The notes below the pieces were generated by a model. It was given only the letters and a program-made list of their open reading frames with translations, made no database searches and was not told where the DNA came from. Below are positions 13,903 to 48,390 of a stretch of 64,000 nt of DNA, piece by piece; position 1 is the stretch's first letter; each line of letters begins with the position of its first letter. This stretch comes from Bugula neritina (taxonomy: Eukaryota > Animalia > Bryozoa): NCBI GenBank assembly GCA_964035545.1, contig OZ037767.1, positions 18,878,259 through 18,942,258 on the forward strand. Direction: 5' to 3'. The position numbers were made by a program, and so were the translations under genes.

Positions 13903-16900
13903 GTGTACAGCAGCTGTTTCGGGATTTGTCCCCTCATCAGCACAGAACAGAGTACCATGGCCCACACCTCCGCAATAATAGAAACTTATAGTTTTACCAA
14001 AGCATATTTAAAACGTATGTCAACATAAGCCAGAGAGCTCAGGTGATTCTAGGGGTCACCTAGGAGTCACTTGAGTAAATATGACCTAAGTTACTCCATG
14101 ATTGTAGATTACCTAATTAATATAATTATTACTTTTACTTGAAGGGAACACTGTCCACCATATCAGCTGTGAAAGGGACTTTTTACTTGCAACTTAGATA
14201 TTCAAAAAACGTCCTACATTCAGATACATTTTATACAGCTTGACTTGGCTTATGAAATGGATTTTTGCATCATTTGTTTTGCCTCTAAATAAATATATAA
14301 TTTTGTTTTAGTGAAACCTGTATGTGTTGTGTTTGCAGATCTCGTTCAATGTCAAATAGTTCCATGGCTGACCCACCAAGTAGCACCGAGAATGGAACAC
14401 ACTGTCACACAGAACTCAGTGCTCGTATGCCGGAGGTAGATAAGATAGCCAGGAAGAAGCTGATTGTAGCCAGTGTTCTCTGTCTCCTGTTCACTATTGG
14501 GGAAGCTACAGGTTAGTGTCCTACTTGGAAATCTGCTGTTTCATTCACCGGCAATATTTTATGGTGATCTTGTGGAGTTGTCTTCTTCAATATTACTGTT
14601 GAGCTGCCAGTTTTGTGATGAAGAATTAACATGCTGGTAGTGTGGTTTGAACCATTGCACCACCAAATGATTAGGGGATAAACAAGGTGGTATTGGGGCA
14701 GCTAAACAAGAATTTAAAATAAAATCTATAAATTAGACCAACAGTAGTTACAATTTAACACATAAATTTGAAGTACAATTAAAAAACAAATGTTTTGCTC
14801 TGTTGTGTGTGTACAATAGCTTAAAATTTAAATAGTCAATTTGTGGCAAAGTGACTGGCGTTTGAATTAAAGCAGCCAATAAGAGCTCTTCATGTTCCCT
14901 GAAGCTCTAGAATTTTCAATTTACCTGTTATAGACTGTAAGAAACGTAATCAGGTTTAATAAAATTCTCTCTTCTCAATTTCAAGTTTCATTTTCTCCTT
15001 AGCTGTAGAAATATTATATAATGAGGCAAAACTTTGTAACCAAAGATAAATTAGAGAAAAAATATGCATAAGAACTACTCCAGAAAAAACGAACAAGACA
15101 ACAAAAGTGTCTGAAGTAAAGAATATAAGTATACCAAGCCCATATAAGTTTTTCTTACAAGCACTTCAGTAGCTGATTAGCCCAATGCTGAAGATGCGAA
15201 TACACAGGAGAGTGTAATTTAATCTTGACCAGTGGTTAACCCTTTTATATGTTGAAATTTAATCATCTGGTGCACTTGTATTACAATACAAGTGCACCTT
15301 GACAGTAGTCAATATCAATACAATTTCGAAATTGTTACTATAGACTATAAAATTCTTTCTGCTCAATGAAAATTGTAAAATATCATATTTCTATGGCTGT
15401 TTTGTTTTCACACAATCATATACTTATGGTAATTGAAGACACTTTACTGCGTGTGAGAGAGCTGCTAAAATTTCAGAATTATTCAGTGAATTAAATAGAT
15501 TAGAAAGATTCTGGCAACTCATCTCAGCTAACGATAGTAGCTTCCATTTCATAGGTTATCTAACCAATTAGCTATTCACTACATAGTGAAGTTTCTTTTT
15601 ATTTTGCTGCATTCTAAAGGTTTTAGCCTTGGTTATTAAGAAACAAATCGGTCTGCCTTGAGAAAATGTATTTTAACATCTGTCAAACTTTACTTTACAA
15701 CACTTTTAGTAAATGTTGTTTATGAGTTGCTATAGTAACTAAGAATACATGATTTTTCTCTATTTTTGATGAACACTTTGATTAGTTTTGTAGCTATAGA
15801 TTTGACTTCACACAATAAAAGTTCAGTGAACCCCTGCTGAAGACAAAGCATCAGAATTTTGTTAGAGCTCAAACTACTCATTGTTTGAGTCTTGACATAA
15901 AGACAATTTTACTTTTATTTCCTAACCAATATTTTACATATTATATATTCAACTCATTGAGCACTATAGCGGAATTGGAAGTTTTACTTTCAATCACTGA
16001 GAGGTTTTGAACACATTGGTTAACTAAGTGTTACAGCTTACCATATTGGTGATTGTTTAGATATTTTATTACTCTTGCTCAATACTATATATACGAGTAA
16101 TTCATCATGGCTGACAAAGATAAATTGAGAATTCTGCTGAATAAATTTAGTCATAGTTACTTTGTTGTCTGGAACTTTGTGTATTACATCTTGTGTGAAT
16201 CTAGCCTAATTATTTATGGTTTGTTTTGACAATGACTAAAAATTATAGGAACAGTTTGGTGAAGTTTTCAAATCCAAGAATTGCATGCGTTTATTTTACA
16301 CATCTTTCATGAACTAACACCAAGTTTTAGCTAAAATAAATCACATCTTCAAGTTAGCGTAATTTCCAGTGACTAAGTTTTTGCATAATAATTTTATTTT
16401 TAGTATAAATAAGGTAACTTTGTAAAATGTCCATTTTAGTTATGCCTAGGTTTTACATGCAGGTTGAGAGCTGTGCCTATAACCATGCTGGAACAATTTA
16501 AATTTTATGCAAACATGTCTTGAATTGATTTGGGATTTCTGAAGTTCTAAGTTTAAGGTTTCAAGGCAGCTATGTGTTGCAACAGCTAAAAGTTCGCCAA
16601 GAGTCCTATTACTTTTATAATACTGGACTTTGAAGTAAAATGGAAACATTATTAACAAGCTATCAGAAATCCCCAATCAATTAAAGACATATTTGCATAA
16701 AATTTATTATAAAACAAAGTTGTTTGAGCATACAGCCCTCAGACAGTCTGCAGATGATAGCTAATATTTATATGAATATTTTAATAGGGGTAATGGGGGG
16801 GGGGGGCACAACGGTCATAGGGGTACAAAAAGCCGGCCAAATTGTGAGAGAACCTATTGACTTAGAGTTGTGATTTTTTTTTCATAAAAAGATATTGACA

Positions 16901-18256
16901 TAATTATTCAGCCTCTGTAGTTTCAACACTTGCGGAATTTTCGTGTTGAAAAGGCGAGTAAAAAACTGTTTTTACCTACTTTTTGTAAATTTCTTAGGAT
17001 GTCATTGAAGCCTTATAACTTTTTACACTCAAATGCAAGAAGCCTAAATTTTATTAATATTGTTGCCATTGCTTGTCTCTGCAATGCTTAACTAGTATAA
17101 CAGCAAACACTGGAATAAATTTTTGTTGAGGCACATTTATTTTCTATTTGGCCACACGGGGCACAATGGGCCACGCTGACCGGGGCACAATGGGCCACCT
17201 GATTATTGCACCCTGATCACTGTTATTAGTTTGTTTGCCCAAAAAGTTGGTTGAACTGTTACTAAAATTTATAAATATAGCCATTTCTGACCTTTTTGTA
17301 AAATATCAAAGACATCATGGTAAGACTACAAAACTACAAGTTGAAGCTCCCCTAATACATACATCTGGTAAGGTTAAAGCTTTGCCATTTTATACATAAT
17401 ACAAAACACTCTGCTGTTGCTACTAGTAGATAGTCATGATAATCATTATATATTACACCATTGAGGGAATATACATGCATTTGACTGAAATAAATTGTGA
17501 TTTGCTAATTTGCTCCCCCCTCTCCCTTTCGTACTCCAGTCACAAACCTCAGCCATGATGCACCTTAGCTACAGTTCATGGAAAAAAGTTCACTCAGAAT
17601 TTTTTAGTACATTTTAGTAAATTTTTTTTTAATAAACGTTGCTCTGAAGTGAAAATAACAAAACATTTTTAGTTTTAATCAGTAGTGATAATGGCACTGC
17701 AAAACTGAATGACGTGCGTTTGATTTTGCCTTCCTCTGCTATCTGTAGTGGAACAAACTGTACAGCTAAAACATGAATTTTGCTGTAGATCTGAAAGAGT
17801 ATCTTTATTTATTTGTATTATTAAATAAATAAAGATCAGATATAACAAAATATGCAAAATTTCAATATATTTGTTGCGTTCCACCCAGTGGCCCATTGTA
17901 CCCCGGTACCGGGGCACAATGGGCCAATTTTTTCGTCATGAAAATTTCATTATTCTGAAAGTTGTGAAAGAGATAGAAACAACAAACTGGTACCTGTAAT
18001 AGACAACAGATGTAGCATTAAGACTAGAGATTATTGAACTAGTAACTTGAAAAACAGACGAATGAGAGCAACAAATGCAAAATTCGGCCCGTTGTGCCCC
18101 CCCCCCCCCCCCCCGTTACCCCTACTGCATAAACAAGGTGTGTCAGGGATTCTTTAATATGTATGTGTGCTTCACCGCTAGCCCCAGTCTGGTGGTACAC
18201 TGTTGTAGTCTGAGTAATATACTTACTAGAGTAGCGTCAATGACTGGCATTAGCTT

Positions 18257-29800: not shown

Positions 29801-31193
29801 CTAATTTATATTTATAAAAATTGCATAAATTCTTATTTTTCTTGTGTATACTCATTACTTTATTTAGATTTCTTCATTACTTGAACCGCTACACCAACCA
29901 CGCGCAGAGTATGAAGTTTGAGACAGAACTCTACGAGAAGGTGAATAGACGCATCACAGAGCTACGGGATGGCCACGGACAAGCTTGGAACGAAGTGAAG
30001 TTTATACAACTAGCAGTAGACGTGTTATGTGGTGCAAGACAGACGTTGATGAACACGTACATATTTGCTTACTTTGTTGTTCCAACCAACCAGACTATGA
30101 TATTTGAAGAGAATCAAAGAGATCTAGAAGTGGCTACGGAGCAGCTATCCGAATATCTTGAAAGAGACATCTTTAAAAAAAGTAGGTCTATAGTAGATTT
30201 TCTTTTAGTATTGAGATTGTTACATTATTCTCTTCTCACCAAGTTCTGTTTTATTGTTCTCTAATATGTAAGAAAATAACTCTACAGTCTAAGCTATGCA
30301 TGAAAAGTACAACAGTCAATGAGAAAATAACTCTTAATGAGCAGTGTATATTTATAGTGAACAGGTATATGAATACATCAATCACATTAGTTCAATTAAA
30401 CAGTTTTAAAAATGGCACATCGTATTGAAAAGTTAAATAAGTCTGCAACCTGTTTAGTTAATAGTGATGCTTTCTAATTGAGGACTGGTTGAGGTTGATC
30501 AAAATACAAACCATTGCCATGGCGGCATGTTTTATAACATGATGCTAGTCAATAGACAAAGAAAGCTCTAACTAACATTGAACTATACATTCGTCTTCTT
30601 AGCAATTTATAGCAGATTGTTGCTAATAAACACACTATATGATAGAATTTGGATATTATAAATATTTCCACTTCAAACAAAGTCTAAAGGAGGCAAATTT
30701 TATTTCAACTAATAAGATTATAAGACTATTAAGGACATTCACTTATAATTTGCTTTTTAGTGGTTTACAGATCCATTTACTAGTTGGCCTATCTATAACT
30801 GTAGTAACTTGTATAGTTTATTGCACCAAACAAAATAGATAAGACCACTTGGTCAGACTGTGCTACTATCTGTTTAACATACTGGAAATCGTAAAAAAAA
30901 AGAAGTTAGGTTTTTGCTTTTTTTTTCTTCGTCAACGCAGGTCTTCACTTACAAGCTCTTATTTCTCAGTACTCACCGTTAACTCAGATATTGGTTTCAA
31001 GTCCTTTTCAAGAGACTTATGTAATATCTTCTACAACAGCTGGTGATTTTTATATTTTTCAGGCATAGAAGAGATCAAACAAGAAGTGATTGACAAAACG
31101 AATTATTGTGGCAAAAGATGCTCAGCTCTCGTCTCTCACGTCCAGGAAGGGTACGACAACTGCTCGTGGCAGTTCGCTACAAACCTTCGCTGA
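26864..31193 (+). CDS. ARIH1: Ariadne-1-like RBR (RING1-IBR-RING2) E3 ubiquitin ligase, 7 exons, about 600 aa
   Basis: Exons 26864-27150, 27654-28156, 28418-28605, 28967-29131, 29402-29616, 29868-30181, 31063-31193 (1803 nt, phases consistent). UBA-like [19 protein letters not shown]; RING1 CGIC...[10 protein letters not shown]; [10 protein letters not shown]...[21 protein letters not shown]; RING2 [21 protein letters not shown]...FCWVC; Ariadne domain [13 protein letters not shown]...[22 protein letters not shown]. Confidence 0.95.
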
Positions 31194-32553: not shown

Positions 32554-33425
32554 TCAAGATAAAGGATGATCAGGATATTGAAACATCTCAAAGTCAATTC
32601 GATACAGATCCTGTAAATACTTTAAAGTGCTGTGGCTCACATCTCCCCATAAGTCTTCATATAGAATGCTAGTCTTATTTGCCTTTTCATTGGGTAACAG
32701 ATGACTGTTGGCATCTGCTATAGTTTGATCTATGTCTTCAAAACCGAATGCATTCAAAATAACTCTTTCATCTGATTTCATTGTTTCTATTTTACCTGCA
32801 AACAAAATAAACACACACTTGTGTTCGACTACTAACAATACAATAACTAATTTCTAAATACTGTGGAACTAAATATGTACATAATGTAAATTGTCATTAG
32901 TATACCCATATATTTAATCCATATTGTACATCTACAATTACTTACTGGAAGTATATTTACACTATAAAAGTAAATATTTTCACTGTACTTACTTTATCTA
33001 CTCATATGTACTGATATTGCTAAATTATTATTATAACTGCACATGGTAGAGTAATTTTACAATAGTTTTCATGAATATCCCTGGTTTGTTAAATTAGAGC
33101 TGTGCTGAAGCAAAAATACCATTGCCTAATCCTCCAACATAATAAAACAACTCAGCTAACCAATGAAAGTATACTCAAGGTCACAGAATGAACACATGTG
33201 GTACTGGGGTCTCCAGTGGCCATTCTGTGCTAGGATTCCTCCTTCTTTGTGTTGGCCAATCACACACATCTCCAAGTAGTTAACAAACGACATTGCTTGT
33301 TCTCTATTAATTCTGTAATATCTAGAAATATATATATATATATATATAAAATAAAAGTAATGAACGATAAAATTTGATTTAAAACACTTTATTACTACTA
33401 GTTTCTTTAGTGGTAAACTATACAC

Positions 33426-33497
<72 letters not shown>

Positions 33498-36400
33498 GCT
33501 GTAGTGTGAGTTTGTTAAACAGCAGATAAAAGAGTGCTCAAATTATTATATGTACAATAATGAGCAATTATATTATCAAGAAAAAGAGCAATTTAATTAG
33601 ATTTTATTCTATTATGCTGCTATTAGTTTCATGTCTCTTCATCACAATATTGAATTCAAACTTTTACATTAAGAAAATCAACATGTTAAACAAAACGTAA
33701 AAAAACATAACATAACAGTATATATTGTGGTGGTTCGTGGAACTACCAGCAGCACAACATGTAGGGTCGCGTAATTGACCCGGAACAATGGATAGCCAAT
33801 TAGCGTAGTTGATAGTTAGCAGCAATTGTAGTTTCCCGCTGCTAACTCAGTCGAAGCTAGAGTGTGAAATAGACTAGATGTGTAACTTGTTTGGAAATAA
33901 TGTATCGTGTTTTTATAATGTATAGTTGTGTGTAAAATATACTCGTTCACTCGACTTATCCTGGTGCAGTTCTATAGTAGATAAATAGACTCTCTGGATA
34001 GCACATCAACCCTAAATCTGAAAATCTTAACAGTGGTGGCAGCGGTGGGATAGTGCATCCAAGATGGAGACTGAAAATGCTGGAACTCAACCACCGGCAA
34101 TCGAAGGTGAGCGTAGAGACAATGCTGTAGAGACAATGCCTGTTAACCATGTAGTAGAAGAGCGAAGGGTTCCGCGAGAACTAGCTGAAGACCGCTACAG
34201 GTTAAAGGCGCCCACCTTCACGGGTGAAGAGGGGGTGGAACAATTTATCCAAGAGTTTAGCGACGTAATGGACGTCGCTCAGTGGCCCCCTAGGGTGGCC
34301 CTGCTGAAGCTTAGAATGGCATTGATGGACAAAGCCAAGCCCTATGGGCTGGGCGTAGACATTGATAATATCTTTGCTTCTCTGCGGGCCCGCTTTGGCC
34401 TCTCTGCTACAGATGCCAGGGCCCGATTGCAGAGGTTGCGGCGTGATCCCCGCACCCCGCTGCGGGAGCATGCCGCCGCGGTCATGAAGCTGGCACAGAT
34501 CGCGTACAGCGACTTGCCCCCAGTCAACCGCGAGAGGTACACCCTCGACGCTTTCATAGCATCTGTCGACGATCTGGGTCTCCACCACCAGTTTCTAGCT
34601 AGGGGAGTCACCACCGTCGAAGATGCTCTGACTGAGGGGGAAGCTTACCTCCTAGCTAATCAAATGCATAAAAGTCGCGGAAGCTCCCGCCAAGTGGAGA
34701 TAGACCGTGCAGACACGGCCGCGGGACAAGGGGAGGAAACACCCGCCGCGGCTGCCGTGTCCCAGTTGGCGACGGCATCAAAAGTCACTCAACTGACGGA
34801 CATGCTAGCCAAGCTGATAGCAACACTGACACCGCAAAACCCAGTGAGTACCGCCCCTGAGCCCATGCGGCCATCGGCGCCGCCACAGGGAGAAACAGTC
34901 AGTTTTTGCTGGGAGTGCGGAAATCAAGGACATTTCCGCCGATATTGTCCCTTCCTAAATCAGGGGTTAAACTACCGCGGCCCGCAGATGTTCCCACCTT
35001 CCGCGGGCCGACGATGAAACCTCTAGGGAAGAAGAAACGCAGGTCACCCAGACGGGTACCGCGTACTGGCAACCAACAGTGGCAACAGCCACGACGGACC
35101 AGCAAGGGGCTTCGCCCCGCGGCTGCCTTTTCTATGCCCCTTCACAACAGATTCACAGGGCTACAAGTCCAAGAATCTGGATGGGAGCACACAAAGGTAG
35201 CTGAGAATCTAGCCTCGGCACCCCCGAGGCCTACCTATCACCGCCCCAAGAGACCTCCTTCGTGACCCAAAGCGAGGGAGGTACTCCCTGCGAGAGTAAG
35301 GCCTGAAGGGAGAGTTCAGGTGCAGCCCCATGGGAACAGCTATTTCTTGCCCGGTAAACTGGAAGGCAAAGCTGTTACTTTTCTCATTGATTCGGGCTGT
35401 ACCACAAACCTCTTAAGCCGCCAACTCTTCGACACCCTCAGCGCTAGGGTCAGGGGCGAGATGGAAGCATACGAAGGGGAATACGGCACCCTAGCTGACG
35501 GGTCGTGCCTTCCCTTCTATGGTATAATTGAGCTGACGGGACGAGTCCGCGATCAAACGATCCAAGAGACGTTCATCGTCAGTCAGCTCAAGGAGGATGC
35601 TATCCTCGGGATGCCGTTCCTTAAACGGCACGGATGTCACATAGATTTTAGCAGATCTGCAATGATGATGTCCGGGCGGGAACTCGCCTGCGTCGACAAG
35701 TTCGGCCGACCTTTAGTGGGAGGTGTGCAAGTGGTACGCAACCGTACCATACCAGGCCGCTCCCGGGCTACCATTCACTGCAGGGTGAATAGTAGCCGGA
35801 TCTCTGGACTCGGGGTTGTTGAAGGCGCGCACGAAAAGATCCAACTTGCCAGCAGTCTGAATCAGCTGACTGAGCAAGGGGAGATCTTAGTGCAGTGCGT
35901 CAACCCCTTTACCGAGCCTATCAAGCTCCCGGCTGGGTCGATGCTGGGCCGTTTTCACTCTGTTCAGGAGGGAGACGTAGGCTCGTCGCTGGGTGATGCG
36001 ACAGAGGCACTCCCTCGACACCCTATTCAGGGACGAGGGGCAGTCCCAACACATCTCCGGGAGTTATATGAAACAGCCAGTGGCGGCTGCGCGAGTAACC
36101 GGGAACGCCAAGCTATGGCTAAGTTACTACGCGACTACGGTGATGTGTTCAGCAGCGGGGAGCATGACGTGGGACTGACTGGAATTGTCAGACACGAAAT
36201 ACCGCTGACTGCAGGGACAGTCCCTGTCCGGCAGCCCACCCGCAGGTTGGGGCCGGAGAAAGAGAAGGAGGTTAGCCGACAAGTACGGGATCTTCTGGAC
36301 CGGGGACTGATAGAGCCCGCCCATAGTGCGTGGAGCTCGCCAGTCGTACTGGTCCGGAAGAAAGACGGCAGTTGGCGGTTCTGTGTGGACTACCGCAAAC

Positions 36401-39400
36401 TCAATAGCGTAACCATACAGGACGCCTACCCTCTACCTCGTATTGACGAGTCATTGGACGCCCTAGCCGGCAGCAAGTACTTCAGTACGTTAGACTTGCT
36501 AAGCGGCTATTGGCAAGTTCCTCTGAGTCCCGACGCCCAGGAGAAAGCGACGTTTATTACACGGGACGGTTTGTGGAAGTGGAAGGTGCTGCCCTTCGGG
36601 TTAACTTCCGCCCCAGCCACCTTCCAGAGGCTGATGGAACAAGTAAGTCCTTAGCGGACTCCATTGGAAGACACTGCTGGTCTACCTCGATGATGTCATC
36701 GTAATCTCCCCAGACTTCGAGACACATGTCAGTCGTCTGCAGGAGGTTTTCGAGAGACTCCGAGGTGCCGGTCTTAAGCTCAAACCTTCCAAGTGCGCTC
36801 TATTGCAGCCGGAGGTCAAGTACCTGGGGCACGTTGTCGGTCGAAACGGCGTGGCAACGGATCCCGAAAAGGTACGGGCAGTAGAAGACTGGGTCACCCC
36901 CCAAGACTTGACCGGACTCCGGGCTTTCTTGGGGCTGGTAGGGTATTACAGGCAATACATACCAGACTTTGCGGGCATAGCCCAGCCGTTAAACCGGCTC
37001 ACCGCAAAGGGAGTGACGTGGCAGTGGACTCCAGTCGAACAAGAAGCGTTCGACCGCCTCAAGGGCTGCCTACTAACGGCGCCCATCTTGGCCTACCCAG
37101 ACCCCACTCTGGAGTACATCCTTGACACGGACGCCAGTGACCAGAATGTTGGCGCTGTGCTGTCACAAGTGCAGGAAGGCCGAGAGGTAGTAGTAGCCTA
37201 CTACAGCAAGTCTCTCTCACCCGCTGAACAAAATTACTGCACTACCCGCAAGGAGCTGCTGGCAGTAATCAAGTCAGTGAAGCACTTCAGACCATACCTA
37301 TACGGCAGGAAGTTCCGGCTGCGTACGGATCATGCCTCGCTGATCTGGTTGTGCAGGAGAGCAGAGCCCTCTAGTCAGGTCGCCCGGTGGCTCGAAATCC
37401 TAGCTGAATTCTCGTACCGGATCGAACACCGACCGGGCAAGAGACACAGCAATGCGGATGGGTTGAGTCGCCGACCTGACGGAGGTTGCAAACAGTGTCT
37501 CAACATCGAGAGGAGGGATGGAGGTCCCCCACGATGCGAGTTGGAGACGCTGGCTCATCACTGAGCACCGTTTGATTGGGATCAAGGTCAACTCAGGCAA
37601 AGAGTTGATGAGTCCCCGGAGGATGTACAAAACCTCCGCGCCAACCCTGTACTGGCCGGTAATGTTCGAGAGCTGAAGAAGCTCCAAGAAGAGCTGCCTG
37701 GAGTCGTGGCAGACATATACCGGGCCAAAAGGGAAGGGCGACGACCCAGCGAGGAACGCATACGACAGGGATGCGCCGAGTTCCGGCTATACTGTCAGCG
37801 TTGAGACTCGCTGCGGATCGGGCAGGATGGGTTGCTAACCATCTCTCTAGCTGCCAGCGGCAGACACCCGGAAAGGAAGAGGGTAGTCTGCTCCACAGCC
37901 ATCCGCCGTGAGTTGATTTGGGATACTCACAAGCAGGCCCACGCAGGGGTCAAGCGAGTGATATCCAAATTACGACTTCGGTGGTATTGGCCACAAATGG
38001 AGCGTGATGTCCGGCTCAGAGTCAAACAGTGTGAGATCTGCCAGGCCAGTAAGCATAGCCGCCCCCCTGGTGAAGCAGGACGGCGGAGGCTATACGCTGG
38101 TAGGCCCTGGCAAGTAGTCGCTGTAGACCTGGTCGGACCCATGCCCCTGACCCCCAGAGGCAATAATTGGATCCTAGTACTAACCGACCACTTTACTAGG
38201 TGGGCGGATGCTCTGGCTATCCCAGACGCATCAGCCCCAACAGTGGCCAGGGCACTAGACCAACACGTATTCTGTTATTTTGGGCTCCCCGAACAGATAC
38301 ACTCTGATCAAGGCGCTCAATTCCAGTCTCAACTGATGAGCGACCTTTGCCGCCTCTGGGGAGTAAATCAGAGCAGGACCACCCCCTACCACCCTCAAGG
38401 TAACGGGGTGGTGGAGCGCAACAACCGGATGCTAGGTGATGCACTCCGGAGTCTCCTCCTTGGACGCGGTCAAGAGGAATGGGATACGGTGTTGCCGCAA
38501 GTCATGCGTGCATACCGTAGCACCCCACACACCAGTACTGGTGAGACCCCAAACCTCTTGATGCTCGGGAGAGAGACTCGTGTCCCCGACCATCTCACCT
38601 ATCACGTTCCAGAGCAAGATAACTCAGTCCACGAGTATGCCAGTGAACTAGTGGAACGGATGAAGGCCGCACACGAGATACTGCGCCAACAGCAGTGGAA
38701 GGTGCGGCACGAAGATTCCGATGAACCACCCCTCTATCAAAGGGGAGATAAGGTGTGGATGGTCAATTACCGTAGGCGCCGCGGACAGGCTGATAAGCTG
38801 AAGCCTAAGTTCGTAGGCCCCTACGTGGTTGTCGAGGCTATGCCCAATCATACGTACAAGATCGAGCGCTCAGGACAGGTATCTATCCAGAATGAGTCTC
38901 GCTTGAAACCGTATTGGGCTAGCCCCGGCGGAGTGGGAGAAGCCCCCCCGTTGTTAGAGCCCAGGAGGCAGACAACAACGCGCGGGCGACGGCGGTATGG
39001 ACCTGAATACGAAGTGGTCATACCGCGGGAAGAAAACTTGGTGAGAGAGGAGCGGCAGCTTCTACCAACAGAAGCGTGTCCGCCACCGCCAAGTCTAATT
39101 CCATCACTTCCAGAAACCGAGCCGGTTCCGGAAGTGCAAACCCCCACGGAGGGAGGGGCTCCATCCGGAGAACAAGAAGAGGTGACTGCTGACGGTGAAG
39201 TAGAGACGCCATTAGAGGCCCCTACTAACGAACCGGCAAGCGTGTCACCCCCCCTAGAAAGGGGACAGCGTACGAGGCAACCCCCCGCATACTTGAAGGA
39301 CTTCGTATATGACTGCGTTAAAAGCGGCACGCATGAAAGTCTAGGGGAAAGCCGTACGAGAAAAGAATCGAGCAAATGTGGGAGTTGTCAACACCACGGA

Positions 39401-42400
39401 AATATCAACTTTTACATCGGCGGAAATAGAAATAAAATTCATCCGCCGGGTGCACAAAGTCTTAATCACGCACCCCAACCACGTTGCTCGATCTTTTCAT
39501 ACGCTGATGCAGTCAGGAGTAGACGTGTTTCTAAGCAGTAGTTCAAACCATTTCACACATTCAGTATGTCTTACGACAACAGATCGTGGGGTGAGTTAAC
39601 TATATCTTAATACGAAACTAGATTGCATCGCTCAGCTCTGACTCACCGAGTCAATCGAGCTGGAGATAGGTTAGTGAAATACCGTAGTAAGAACTCAGTT
39701 TGACTTAGAGATTTTTATAATCTCATTGCAATACGTGTTCTATCTGACTATTCACTACCATAAATCTCTACGAGGTAACTGAATTAGGAGTTGCCAAGCT
39801 GTTCAAGCTGACAACACAGCAGTGTACTGTATTACCACTGTTGAAACTTTTTCAGATTACACTCGACCCGCTACAACCAGGGTACGGGATAGAACACTTC
39901 CCGCTCCGTATCCAGAGGAGTATGCTAGTGGTGACCGGCCTGAGCCACTACGCCGCCGTTGGCGGTAGGTGTCTCCACAAACAGAAGAAGAAATAGAAAC
40001 AGCCTGGGGGTCCAGAGGACGGACGAGATGCCAGATCTGTGGTGAAGATTGCGCCTCTCACCGCTCCCTTAAACTACACGTCAATGCTCATCTCCTACTG
40101 ACATTCTGCCCCTGCGGGTACAATGATGTGTATCCCTACCCTGTCACCAGACACAGAGCGGCGGGCTGTTTCCCTGGAGAAAACTACGTGGTCGACGCTA
40201 AGCTATACCCGGAGTTCCTCACACTTATACGACCTCTGGTGAAGAAGGCCATGCTATTAGCCGTTCTGTCCTCGGGGTTCCAACGTGTGTTAGACAACGC
40301 CCGCCAACAATCCCCGTTGGTGTCTGACCGCCCTCAAATCACATACACCCCCGAGGAAACTACATATCCAGAAGAAGGAGAGATCTCCCCTACACCGGCG
40401 AAGAGACGAACCAGGTCCCCCAGTCCACCCTTGCGCCGCAGACGGACACCGTCCCCAGACCCAGTACGCCTAGCCACAGTAGAAGAACGCCTCCTGCGAT
40501 TACAAGAAGAGTTCACCCAGCTGGCGCCAGACCTACTTAACACTACAACAGGACTCTTCCAGCTAAAGGGATCCGTATGCCGTATGAAACGGAAACTGCG
40601 TACATGCCAAGCCAAGCACCGGCGTGCCCAACAAGGACTCTAGTTGGCTACCCAGAATACTCCGCAACTTCACATCTTGGGAGGACCCAAGATGTCATGC
40701 AAATGTTTAACTGCTTAACAGGTTATCCCCTGTCTAACACCACAGCTAGCTAGTATTCCTCGTCTATCTACAGCTGGCCAATTGTATGCAACGAATCGTT
40801 ATGATGACTCTGTTTATTACTATGTCTCTTCCTGTATATTATGTGTTATTTTTGTCCACTGATGTATGCGGTTACTAATGAATGTTTTTTATATATATAT
40901 CAGAAAGATGGCTTTCTGCTGGTGGGGGCGGTGTGGTGGTTCGTGGAACTACCAGCAGCACAACATGTAGGGTCGCGTAATTGACCCGGAACAATGGATA
41001 GCCAATTAGCGTAGTTGATAGCAGCAATTGTAGTTTCCCGCTGCTAACTCAGTCGAAGCTAGAGTGTGAAATAGACTAGATGTGTAACTTGTTTGGAAAT
41101 AATGTATCGTGTTTTTATAATGTATAGTTGTGTATAAAATATACTCGTTCACTCGACTTATCCTGGTGCAGTTCTATAGTAGATAAATAGACTCTCTGGA
41201 TAGCACATCAACCCTAAATCTGAAAATCTTAACAGTATATATTTTAGTATTTTACATACAGTGTATGTATACAAAATACTGAAATAGTCAAAACTTGCTA
41301 AAATCTTCATTTGGTTAATCATTTGAAAAACCTGATTTTCAACTGCCAGTTATACAAAGCATCCCTACGGATATACACATATTTGCTATGTTTTGTGTTT
41401 TGCGACTATCTTCTAGTTTTTACTAACACAATGCTGAATAAGCATGATATATAGAGTTAAATAATAAAGTCGACTACATCATGGCTCACTTGCACCTTGA
41501 ATTATATCACTAGGCATTTTATACAAAGCACTAAACTGTATGTTGAGTTAATCATATAATGAAGGTCAAAAATTGGAAGCTTCAATTAACTAAAACGTTT
41601 GGCAACATCAACACGAAGTTTACTGTAAATATAACAACTTACTTGTAAAGTCTCGGAAATCTAGTCTTAATTTCACAGAAGCCTAGTCCCTGCCTGGTTT
41701 CTATGAACTTCTGTATGTACACACTTACGAGTCTCCTCCAAGGGTTCCGCACCAGAGCAAAGGAAAAGTAGCTAAGAAATTCTTTCGTGTTTCCAACAGC
41801 GATCCTGTTGCCTCTTACTAAATACCTGAAATATTTTATTGAAACTGGTATGACTACTAAACTTATTTTGAATATATAAAATACATAGTATATCTGTTAA
41901 AATAGAAATAGGCTACATGTCTTTCTCTGTTTCATTTTACATATATTTCATTATTTCAGATACAATGGTGTTATAGAAACAACGCAGTACTATTTTTATA
42001 TTTTTAGTGTAGTAATAAGTTATGAAATCAAATGGTTGTTTTATGTGTAATATTCTATAATAATTTTACTTTTGTAATTAAAAAGTGCATCAAATTATTC
42101 TTGTGGTATGCAAAAAGCCTTCTAGTAATCTAAATAAAAAAATGTTTTTATCAATTAAACTTTAGATATATTTTAAAAAACCATTAAGCAGACGAATTCA
42201 ATGCAATCAATGACCATTACATAATTACTATAGCTCTTCCCTATGTACCCAAGACTTCTAGCATATATACTCAGAACTTTTAGATGTAACTAGCTACAAG
42301 TGTGCTTTAAGAAATGCACGTAGTTGTGGTTTGTCTTTCTAATATCTATAGACATATTGTTAGGCAATGGAAAGAGATTATATTGTAGAGATTAGAGTGT

Positions 42401-45400
42401 TTTAACATATTAAGTAACAGTGAATTGTGATTTACAGGCTCTAAAATGAGGAAACCTATCATATTTAGATTCTTCATTTTTAAGTCTAACATTAGTTGAC
42501 AAACAAGTTCGATCGTGCAAACACAATTGCATTGTTTTTAGAGATCCTAGAAAATGCATTTGTTAGATAGTCTTTTAAATTAAAGTAAAACTAAAGGGTT
42601 TGCAAAACACTTGAAAAGTCACTTTGAGTTTTATGTCTAACATTTTCTAATATTTTGTGATAACCAGTTATATAATAGTAATATAATATAACAGCATTTG
42701 ACTACTCCTCCTAGTAAGACAATCTAGGATAGTAATTGTTGCAGCTGCATGGTCCCATGTAGTGCATTGGACCAACTCAATGTAATGTAAGATCTGTCAT
42801 CCAGTCATAAAAATCTCTCTCACAAAAACTCCATAACCTATACGTATAGCTTATAACGACATTTTTTGATGTGTGGCATATATTGGTAAAACTGGCAACA
42901 CTCTTAGTTGACAAAAGCAACTCACCGGGGCACCATATTGTGTGGTTTTAGGTTTTTTATGTTGGAGCAAGGAGGGCCCCTGAACCAACACAGAAGTCTA
43001 AGAATGTTGGTGCTTCCAGCCTTGAGTATTGGACAGAAGAGGACATGTTTGTGTGTAGAGATCAAAGATCTGTGACCGGCTGTCACTCCGAGTATGTACT
43101 CCTTGACATCAGGTCTTTTGCAAGTCTGAAATACACAACTTAACCAATCATCTGCTTTGTTACACTTAGTCTACCAATCATATGCTCTGTTACAATTAGT
43201 TTACTAATCACATACAAACTTTTAATTAATAACTCAACTGATACAAGTTTAAGCAATGTTACTTCACCAATCATTTGCGCTGTTTGTAACCGTTTGTAAC
43301 TCTTATTTAGCTTAGGTTTTTGTTTGAGATATATGGTCTGTTTTACTCTCACAAGAGTAAATGAATATTTGCTAGAGCTCATATCATTTTTGTAATTTTA
43401 TTATTCAAATAAGAAACAATACCGTCTGTAGCCGAAGAGCCTATAACCTGAAATTACCTGTATGGGTTTTGAAAAGCGCTGAATAGTAAAACACTTTTTT
43501 ATGAAAGCAATTTTGTTGGAAATACCAGAAAACATAATCAAAATAATATATTTACTAGTTGAAAAAGTGAGATTTTAGTAAAGTAAAGTAACATGCAAGT
43601 CATGAATCCATGTTTGTACATAACAAGACTATTTTTGACTCCATCAAATAACAACATGGAAAATGTGAGAGAAAGAAAAGTCAAAGTTTAATATCAAGCA
43701 TTTGCAGCAAAGTGTGTAGCTTTTTAATGCAAAGCAAAGGATTACCATAAAGGCTTTGTTGTGAAATTACGAGATGATAAAATAGAGATTTCCTGTTCAA
43801 CTATTGCAATAGAAGAAGACTATAAACTATAAAGTATCAGATACACATGGAATAGCAATAAAGTTACAGCTCCTTCACTGTTTTAGTATTTTAATCTGCC
43901 ACGGCTACATAAAGATATATAAGTGACTCACCTCTCTAATTAACTGATGCCTTTCTACCTGCTGCCGAGCTACCAGACTGGCGTTGTAGGGCAGCTTATC
44001 TGAATCTCGAGTCAACCAACCCTGGTATGGCCTGCTTTTCATCTCTAAAAACAACATAGCATGAACTTCATGTGAAAGTAGAACTGGCTGTAAAGCTCGT
44101 AAAGGTAGTTATAAAAACGCTGACTGCTCGGCTCCTATTAAAGTGATTTGTGATGTCAGACAGTGCGCTCAGTCATGGTTACTGGTATGCTGATGTAGAA
44201 AATACATCAAACTCAAAAGTTGTAAATTTATACAATTAAGGAGAAGAAATTAGGTCCAATCATAAAAATATTCTATCAAGATGGTTCAGCAAAAACAAAG
44301 ATACCGCAGCTTCTTCCAACAACATTTAATGCAAGGCTGTAAATATTAAATCAAATTATATTATGCATGACAGCTGGCTGCTTCAAATCATAATGCATTT
44401 AAAATAATCGCTCATTAGTCGTAGTATAATTTCTAAACTACAGCCTTAATTTCATAGCTCTAAGCGCTTATAGAAAGTTAGTAACCATGGTGTAGATGAA
44501 AAGGCTTTCATAAGAATTTTGCTGATTATAAACAATTTAAGATGAATGCACTGTGACATAATATTTACCGATGCATAAGCCTTGTATATCTATATCTATA
44601 ATGCAACGTTCTTAGTTTTTACTATAGTAAAAAAAGCATATTTAAAGTGAGGTATTATATATTTAACTTTTTCACAAACTCAATGCATTGGTTATTAAAC
44701 ACGTAACATTTGGCGGAAATCTATAAGGCTTAATGTAGCTAATATCTGTAGCAATGTGCCACATGAATCAAAAGATTACGTTCAGAGTGATACGGTTGGA
44801 CTCTGTTGATTCAAGTTGATTTATATTCGTCACCAAGTTAGAGAAGCAAAGACAAAGTGAAGATGTAGTGTAGCAGGTGATTTATGGACCATTAGTCTAC
44901 ATTACTCAATGCTGCATATCAACTGTTAGAAACTATATGCTACTAAATAGTACCATATATTTCTACTAAATTGCATGGTTAAAGGATTTTTGTTTGTTTC
45001 TCATATAAATACAGGTGGAGCTTGAATGAATGGGATTGGTGACACAAACAATGTGCTTAGCTTGTGATATTTACAAAAGCAGAATGATATGCCATAGTTA
45101 GATATATACAGTAAGGAAATCACAAATTGTTTTTACAAACTTCATCTGTTTATATCCAGTCATTCTAATGTATAATATATTCTAATAAACAGTACAGAAC
45201 TGATAAATCCTAAAAAGGTTTATTTAGAGAAGGAGAAGTAGTTACTTTACCCTCTAATGTAAGTATCCTAGAGGAAGCTCTCTCCCCTACAGCATTGTCT
45301 ATTAAAGAATCTGCAGTTGTAAGGACTTGTGTGTTGCTATAGTCACCTCTCTTTGAGATGACCTCTCTAACTGGTTTGTGGGAATTACTTGCTGAAGTTT

Positions 45401-47109: not shown

Positions 47110-48390
47110 TAGGGGTAACAGGGGGGAGGGCACAACGGTCATAGGGGTACAAAAAGCCGGCCAAATTGTGAGAGAACTTATTGACTTAAAATTGTGATTT
47201 TTTTTTCATAAAAAGGTATTGACATAAGTATTCAGTCATTGTAGTTTCAACACTTGTGCAGCATACGTGTTGAAAAGGCGAGACAAAAACTGTTTTTATC
47301 TACTTTTTGTAAATTTTTTAAGATGTCGTTGAAGCTTTATAACTTTTTACACTCAAAGGCAACAAGCCTAGATTTTACTGATATTGTTGCTATTGCTTGT
47401 CTCTACATTGCTTAACTAGTATAACAGCAAACTCTAAAATAAATTTTCCTTGAGGCACATTTATGTTTAATTTGACCATCCGGGGCACAATGGGCCACCT
47501 GATTATTGTACCCTGATCACTGGTTTTTGTTTGTTTGCCCAAAAAGTTGGTTGAAATGTTGCTAAAAACTATATATATAGCCATTTCTGATCTTTTTGTA
47601 ACATATCAAAGACATCATGGTAAGACTACAAAACTACAAGGTGAAGCTCCCCTAATATATACATCTGGTGAGGTTAAAGCTTTGCTATTTTATACATAAT
47701 ACAAAACACTCTGCTGTTGCTACTTAAGTAGATAGTCACGATAATCATTATGCATTATATCATTGAGGGAATATACATGCATTTGACTAAAATAAATTGT
47801 AATTTACTCATTTGCTCCCCCCTCTCCCTTCCGTACCCCAGCCACAAACCGAAGCCATGCACCTTAGCTACAGTTCATAGAAAAAAGTCCACTCGGAATT
47901 TTGTAGTACATGTTACTAAAGTCTTTTTTCTGATAAAAGTTCCTCTGAAGTGTAAATAAAAAATATTTTTAGTTTGAAACAGTAATGATAATGGCACCGT
48001 AGAACTGAGTGATGTGCGTTTGATTTTGCCTTCCTCTGCTATCCGTGGCGGCACAAACTGTACAGCTAAAACATGAATTTTGCTTTGGATCTGAAAGAAT
48101 ATTTTTTATTTATTTATAATATTAAATAAATAAAGATCAGATGCAACAGATGCAAAGTTTCAATATAGTTGTTGTGTCCCACCCAGTGGCACAATGGGCC
48201 GATTTTTTCGTTACGAAAATTTCATTATTCTGAAAGCTGTGAGAGAGATAGAAACAGCAAACTGATACCTGTAATAGACAACAAATGCAGCATTAAGACT
48301 AGAGATTATTGAACAAGTAACTTGAAAAACAGACGAATGAGAGCAAAAAATGCAAAATTCGGCCCGTTGTGCCCCCCCCCCTTACCCCTA
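47110..48390. mobile_element. Non-autonomous TIR DNA transposon, copy 2 of the 16785-18124 family
   Basis: Same TIRs and colinear internal sequence; inserted in a (TAGTA)n-type satellite (46975-47109 and 48400-48575). Confidence 0.88.

Follow-up and report, generated by a model that had tools for sequence, protein, structure and literature searches.

The window, a 64,000-nucleotide stretch of Bugula neritina contig OZ037767.1, holds at positions 33726-41234 a Ty3/Gypsy LTR retrotransposon, recognised by its paired LTRs, its PBS and the pol order PR-RT-RH-IN, and carrying behind pol a third open reading frame, ORF3 (Table 1). The best solved-structure match of the RT/RNase H part of pol is Ty3 (E 2e-55), and the 5' and 3' LTRs are one substitution and one 4-nt indel apart. 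The copy is complete and young but broken, its pol changing frame near 36641-36654 and being interrupted by stop codons at 37562 and 37802; a further stop is found at 35263. The indel at 36641 is polymorphic among contigs of sequencing run X1, so this break is not common to all copies. The PBS is presumably that of tRNA-Leu. When the integrase was used as the query of a search for related loci, five distant loci at 27-38% identity were returned. Behind the SH3-like domain of the integrase, pol runs on into a long acidic, proline-rich tail (38950-39541) that has no Pfam match. The sole substitution between the LTRs (33932 versus 41134) falls in a TATA-like word, with TATAAAA in the 3' LTR only, and the TSD is odd (33711-33725 and 41235-41242), reading GTATATAT (8 nt) on both sides when CA is taken as the LTR terminus and TATAT (5 nt) when a shared G is assigned to the LTR. 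The element is antisense to a minus-strand sulfotransferase-family gene, between whose exons (32554-33542 and 42922-43170) it lies; an Ariadne-family exon is found on the plus strand at 29818-30264, and another repeat, ~1.3 kb long, is present in two copies (16797-18113 and 47121-48388) at 88-94% identity.

Table 1. Features of the ORF3-bearing Gypsy copy, in positions of the window
Feature	Positions	Strand	Remark
5' LTR, TG...CA, 307 nt	33726-34032	+	
PBS, TGG start	34034-34051	+	upstream of gag donor
gag ORF, weak CCHC knuckle match	34064-35017	+	
First 43 nt of gag (14 codons + 1 base), likely the first coding exon of ORF3	34064-34106	+	P0021 junction
Splice donor AAG/GTGAGC inside gag, phase 1	34107-34112	+	
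pol, PR-RT-RNaseH-IN, broken in window copy	34861-39541	+	pol stop codon 39539-39541
26-nt piece between acceptor-like CAG (ends 39564) and donor 39591; contains ATG 39566	39565-39590	+	
Proposed 265-nt intron; likely 3' end of long intron; acceptor CTTTTTCAG ending 39855	39591-39855	+	
ORF3 main exon, in-frame stop 39966-39968 in window copy	39856-40643	+	stop codon 40641-40643
Zinc site 1, classical C2H2 spacing C-x2-C-x12-H-x3-H	40029-40091	+	
Zinc site 2, C-x-C...H...C (C2HC); predicted packing with site 1 in one domain	40107-40169	+	
Arg/SP-rich linker; subfamily-specific among close relatives	40395-40457	+	
Predicted 59-residue helix, coiled-coil type, basic C-terminal end	40464-40640	+	
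Polypurine-tract-like G-rich stretch ahead of 3' LTR	40920-40931	+	
3' LTR, 303 nt	40932-41234	+	

The local features from which an earlier note on this DNA had built a spliced accessory gene are all in place, namely the pol stop codon, the ATG at 39566, a donor G/GTGAGT at 39591, the acceptor AG at 39855 in matching phase, and a frame that stays open to its stop codon apart from the internal stop at 39966-39968. A search with the ORF3 exon, the in-frame stop entered as X, recovered from 1419 candidates 64 relatives at E <= 0.001 and 46-98% identity, none of the 64 bearing a Pfam domain or a name; this is more than chance would give. The open part of ORF3 gave 81 matches at E <= 0.001 among 50%-identity representatives, including a group near 30% identity; the sets of 64 and 81 overlap. 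When the window copy was aligned with 30 of the longest matches, the column of the internal stop held one and the same residue in all 30 relatives, and the stop is therefore decay of the window copy, as the earlier note had thought; its further guess that a CAG codon had become TAG is not borne out by the shared residue. Variants within the exon lean weakly toward synonymous change (7 of 13, P 0.057). Judged by its sequence, ORF3 is a real, conserved non-env accessory gene under constraint, and the family it belongs to is apparently undescribed: in the literature searched, no Gypsy element of a bryozoan or other invertebrate is described as having a zinc-finger ORF3, though such elements may be on file in Repbase, Dfam or GyDB. 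A profile search with the ORF3 alignment over metagenome, viral and prokaryote contigs gave no match.

The conserved core of the protein is formed by two Cys/His clusters, both of them present as earlier described. Across 72 hand-picked rows, from which short fragments were left out and which reach about 20-30% identity, the ligands of site 1 (P0021 numbering) are kept in 63 of 69 rows for C75, 69 of 70 for C78, 67 of 71 for H91 and 71 of 72 for H95, and those of site 2 in 72 of 72 for C101, 69 of 72 for C103, 67 of 71 for H116 and 70 of 71 for C120. These eight residues are almost invariant and by their pattern make up two sets of putative zinc ligands. The first is a classical C2H2 finger with a hydrophobic core, which in the window copy falls below the Pfam cut-off; a tandem array of classical fingers is absent from ORF3, the second site being of the form C-x-C...H...C. 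Prediction from the window copy itself, for which the alignment was shallow, gave a poor model (pLDDT 51.5). AlphaFold2 applied to the relative P0021 (261 aa) gave a mean pLDDT of 84, with residues ~41-170 at >= 90, and modelled one globular domain, a loose linker and a single helix at 202-260. The predicted architecture is thus a compact two-zinc domain, a flexible linker and a long helix.

The same P0021 is instructive as to how ORF3 is expressed. Its residues 1-14 are identical to residues 1-14 of gag P0121, after which it enters ORF3 exactly at the acceptor. The donor at 34107 agrees with the consensus at 6 of 7 positions, which in a donor scan ties it for best in the element, and both it and the acceptor at 39855 are of phase 1. 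It is likely, on these sequence signals, that exon 1 of ORF3 is the start of gag and that the intron is the 5.7-kb stretch 34107-39855, spanning gag-pol. The PBS lies upstream of the donor and would therefore be retained in the spliced RNA. From 115 gag relatives, 59 cover the donor site, and in these rows gag residues 14, 15 and 16, the best conserved part of the gag N-terminus, are kept in 46, 52 and 55 cases, the five flanking positions on each side in 22-41; residues 15-16 are donor-compatible in 54 of the 59, even with a shorter exon. A pattern scan for the exon start matched 16 of 142 proteins, one of which was a false match (P0193) and was dropped and another P0021 itself; in the 14 unjoined relatives Ser or Leu precedes the exon start without exception, compatible with a YAG acceptor. 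The junction of gag with ORF3 is known from one protein record, P0021, a query with its residues 1-48 having returned P0021 and no second junction protein. The contig that encodes it, at 5320 nt, exceeds the expected mRNA and may therefore be a retro-copied spliced RNA. No splice joint was found among those listed for the assembled contigs of six sequencing runs, which are mostly of DNA or of unknown kind and from which rare forms had been dropped; the sole RNA run, X2, gave low-depth pieces, one in ORF3, that may be DNA, and most runs held a small share of the words. Two gag/ORF3 pairs from equal-size contigs of more than 8 kb, a coincidence reached in 1 of 20,000 jittered trials (the ORF3 and gag match lists have four contig sizes in common overall), indirectly support a linkage of ORF3 with gag in elements ~50% diverged. 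The joining of gag P0175 and the ORF3-like P0223 on one 1926-nt contig was rejected, the two having no compatible overlap beyond 9 codons.

The earlier note had instead opened the protein with the peptide MSYDNRSW at ATG 39566 and removed the 265-nt intron alone. As the main structure this is rather improbable, for all that its signals are present and in phase and that the gene call of the distant relative P0024 begins with Val-Ser some 95 residues ahead of the exon, at the place expected for a GTGAGT donor (an indirect point). The sole junction seen, however, joins the gag N-terminus to the acceptor; no 39590-39856 joint is listed in four runs over 39540-40140; 0 of the 142 scanned relatives begin with an MSYDNRSW-type peptide joined to the exon; and an ATG 25 nt past pol requires an upstream splice or promoter. 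The same structure may occur as a minor, three-exon form. What also favours it is the keeping of 39557-39605 in diverged contigs: in run X5 some of these align over about that stretch only, and in run X1 a deep contig spans 39559-39715 with one difference. The 26-nt piece within it (39565-39590) may serve as an optional micro-exon or as an RNA element. Inclusion of these 26 nt behind the gag exon would shift the frame, unless ATG 39566 were used. In a predicted hairpin the donor at 39591 is paired with an upstream pyrimidine stretch, and 39540-39860 folds better than its shuffles (z -2.8), several pol windows being as good or better; 150-nt windows of the LTR, where a TAR-like hairpin for a Tat-like transactivator might be sought, fold no better than z -1.9, and the post-pol region has no Rfam match.

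Named members were found in 4 of the 30 clusters of ORF3 relatives that were looked up, and all are bryozoan gene models. XP_067940964.1 and XP_067944745.1 of Watersipora subatra and KAF6040923.1 and KAF6037488.1 of Bugula neritina have the same two-zinc domain as ORF3, and several also end in a coiled-coil-type helix. They differ from ORF3 in that they are uncharacterised, that some have the domain twice, and that they may be either host genes or annotated genes of elements. A quick unrooted tree of 123 columns gathers the 34 near ORF3 rows in one group (support 98) and leaves the named bryozoan models outside it, among unnamed rows. The zinc domain occurs twice in some distant relatives (P0196/P0260, P0227 and P0241/P0264). 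Two others, P0265 and P0269, one of which is a Bugula model, have in common an acidic N-terminal segment of ~64 residues before diverged zinc domains; this segment could represent either the first exon of a host gene or, in another family of elements, the beginning of gag. The end of the segment is similar to the first motif conserved in gag.

A Gypsy precedent for a gene of this layout, which the earlier note had supposed to be lacking, is provided by CERV of the C. elegans element Cer1, a protein made from a spliced mRNA that has the N-terminus of gag at its start and finishes within the post-pol ORF (PMC10309623). CERV is encoded by five exons and measures 517 aa, in which H, M and G-protein-like domains are recognised together with a possible C4 finger; outside nematodes, according to that account, it shows no obvious homology. 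It is credited with a leucine zipper and a Cys finger, and a stop codon in CERV blocks export of the genomic RNA (PMC10309623). ORF3 resembles it in the spliced gag-N-terminus/post-pol layout, as judged from one junction protein and from conserved in-phase signals. In contrast to CERV, and comparing by description, ORF3 is of ~260-280 aa, has C2H2 and C2HC sites and a C-terminal helix, and gives no match to a G-protein fold; moreover, the role of CERV is demonstrated, whereas that of ORF3 is proposed by analogy. Set apart by CERV's description, the ORF3 protein appears to be unrelated to it.

The most plausible function for ORF3, held tentatively and at somewhat less than an even chance, is that of a nuclear factor acting on the unspliced RNA of its own element, helping it to escape splicing and to be exported in the manner of CERV. 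Because splicing from the strong donor at the start of gag would remove all of gag-pol, the element must also release unspliced RNA, and since the layout is that of CERV, with a similar list of parts on a different domain, a CERV-like role is ranked first. The ORF3 mRNA would be subgenomic, its splice running from the donor that follows the first 43 nt of gag to the post-pol acceptor, so that splicing by default would remove gag-pol and yield ORF3. The protein might dimerise through its helix, enter the nucleus by way of its basic cluster and bind the RNA of the element, and it would then shift output toward full-length RNA for Gag/Pol and for packaging, a feedback of the sort proposed for CERV. 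Behind the domain, a basic cluster (>=5 R/K in 8) occurs in 23 of 34 near rows, almost always at the end of the helix, and in 14 of 26 far rows, 7 of which have it 47-65 residues from the end, before the helix. Several observations stand against RNA export. The Arg/SP stretch and the Leu-rich helix that had been read as Rev-like signals are present in the window copy, the latter as a long C-terminal helix, but as conserved Rev signatures they are not supported, the Arg/SP stretch being found in 3 of the 31 rows of the close alignment and 2 of 31 having a class-1 NES-like pattern within their C-terminal 75 residues (helical NES classes being indistinguishable by pattern from the heptad); and the best matches of finger 1 are with DNA-binding fingers.

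Those matches bring forward the alternative that ORF3 works as a dimeric regulator that binds DNA or chromatin; it would attach to the LTR or internal DNA of the element and transactivate it or shield it from silencing, a reading that ranks close behind the exporter and merits serious if cautious attention as a distinct possibility. When the ORF3 profile was compared with PDB sequences, its finger 1 scored highest with fingers of SALL3/4, ZBTB48-type and HIC2 proteins (E 1.5e-6 to 4e-4), the helix matching weakly; the top row of a Foldseek search, itself non-significant, is the Kaiso DNA-binding domain (E 1.0); the near group ends in a zipper and a basic tail; and those bryozoan models that have this domain carry a C2H2-type label. 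The need for an export factor is also open to question. In errantiviruses env is spliced from a site in gag or close to it (PMC12992720), and in simple retroviruses a cis element suffices for the export of unspliced RNA (PMC10309623), both managing without such a protein as far as these sources say, and therefore splicing alone demands no Rev. Against DNA binding, ORF3 has a single classical finger and no tandem array, and its structural matches are non-significant, none with E <= 0.001 having been returned by Foldseek from PDB or from viral models. A wide VIA structural search, in which the zinc domain was barely probed, gave generic coiled coils only (best Z 6.7), and the clusters returned by the ESM Atlas were poorly recognised and either unnamed or generic C2H2 ones. 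Furthermore, CERV, the closest architectural precedent, acts post-transcriptionally (PMC10309623).

It is improbable, in our estimate, that ORF3 is instead a protein adaptor that has no specific nucleic acid binding and either blocks a host restriction or small-RNA factor or aids the assembly or targeting of particles. In the predicted fold one compact domain with extra helices buries both zinc sites, and sites of the C2HC type often bind proteins; yet basic clusters are widely kept in the family, and no partner is indicated. Far less probable again is an env-like or cell-fusion protein, suggested by the env position of ORF3 and by its likely splicing, as env is spliced. Errantiviral env-F is comparable as a third ORF behind pol with a short upstream exon, which in one subclade comes from within gag (PMC12992720); ORF3 differs in having neither a conserved membrane segment nor an env match. 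A hydropathy scan of 31 rows found no conserved membrane anchor or signal-type segment, the 19-residue peak reaching >= 1.6 in 3 of the 31 and there within a Lys/Arg-containing helix predicted to lie inside the domain, and no env family or fold was matched, so that the non-env character first claimed for ORF3 is upheld. That ORF3 is a host exon captured in the window copy only and in neutral decay, as the domain shared with bryozoan models and the stop in this copy might suggest, can hardly be credited, given that the ligands are kept in dozens of diverged relatives of element type, and given the conservation of the splice codons in gag and the gag/ORF3 contig pairs.

Returning to the CERV-like exporter, likenesses can also be drawn with Rev, Rex, Rem and Rec, in that ORF3 is a small accessory protein with a likely spliced mRNA, a basic segment and a predicted coiled coil, and Rev-like proteins mostly have predicted coiled coils (PMC5568270). 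ORF3 differs from them in its two-zinc globular domain and in belonging to an invertebrate, and no conserved class-1 NES was found in it. ORF3 may work like CERV or like Rev and is here filed as a member of neither, the domains of CERV being absent from the model. Among other invertebrate elements, the LTR elements of bdelloid rotifers likewise have a non-env ORF3, but theirs encode GDSL esterases, DEDDy exonucleases or TM proteins, and the word "zinc" is absent from the main text of that account (PMC5408684). The relevant parts of a metazoan survey are concerned with env only (PMC13524379), and the sORFs of MDG1 are small unspliced ORFs (PMC11952523). A bolder version, which is on balance unlikely, holds that ORF3 is a Rev-like exporter that arose independently of retroviruses and of the nematode CERV from a two-zinc domain common to bryozoan host genes, and that it is tuned by a frame-shifting 26-nt micro-exon with a hairpin-hidden donor; if this were true, a splicing circuit in the style of the complex retroviruses would operate in an env-less retrotransposon.

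The means by which intron-containing genomic RNA leaves the nucleus has been demonstrated for very few LTR retrotransposons, and CERV is the one dedicated Gypsy-encoded export factor found in the literature searched. Should ORF3, an apparently unrelated protein with the gene layout of CERV, prove to be an exporter, this solution would have arisen more than once outside the retroviruses. If on the other hand it binds DNA, ORF3 would be a candidate transactivator or anti-silencing factor of an LTR element in an animal. Either way, it presents an unannotated two-zinc domain that, to judge from its relatives, seems to have been exchanged between elements and what look like host genes of bryozoans.
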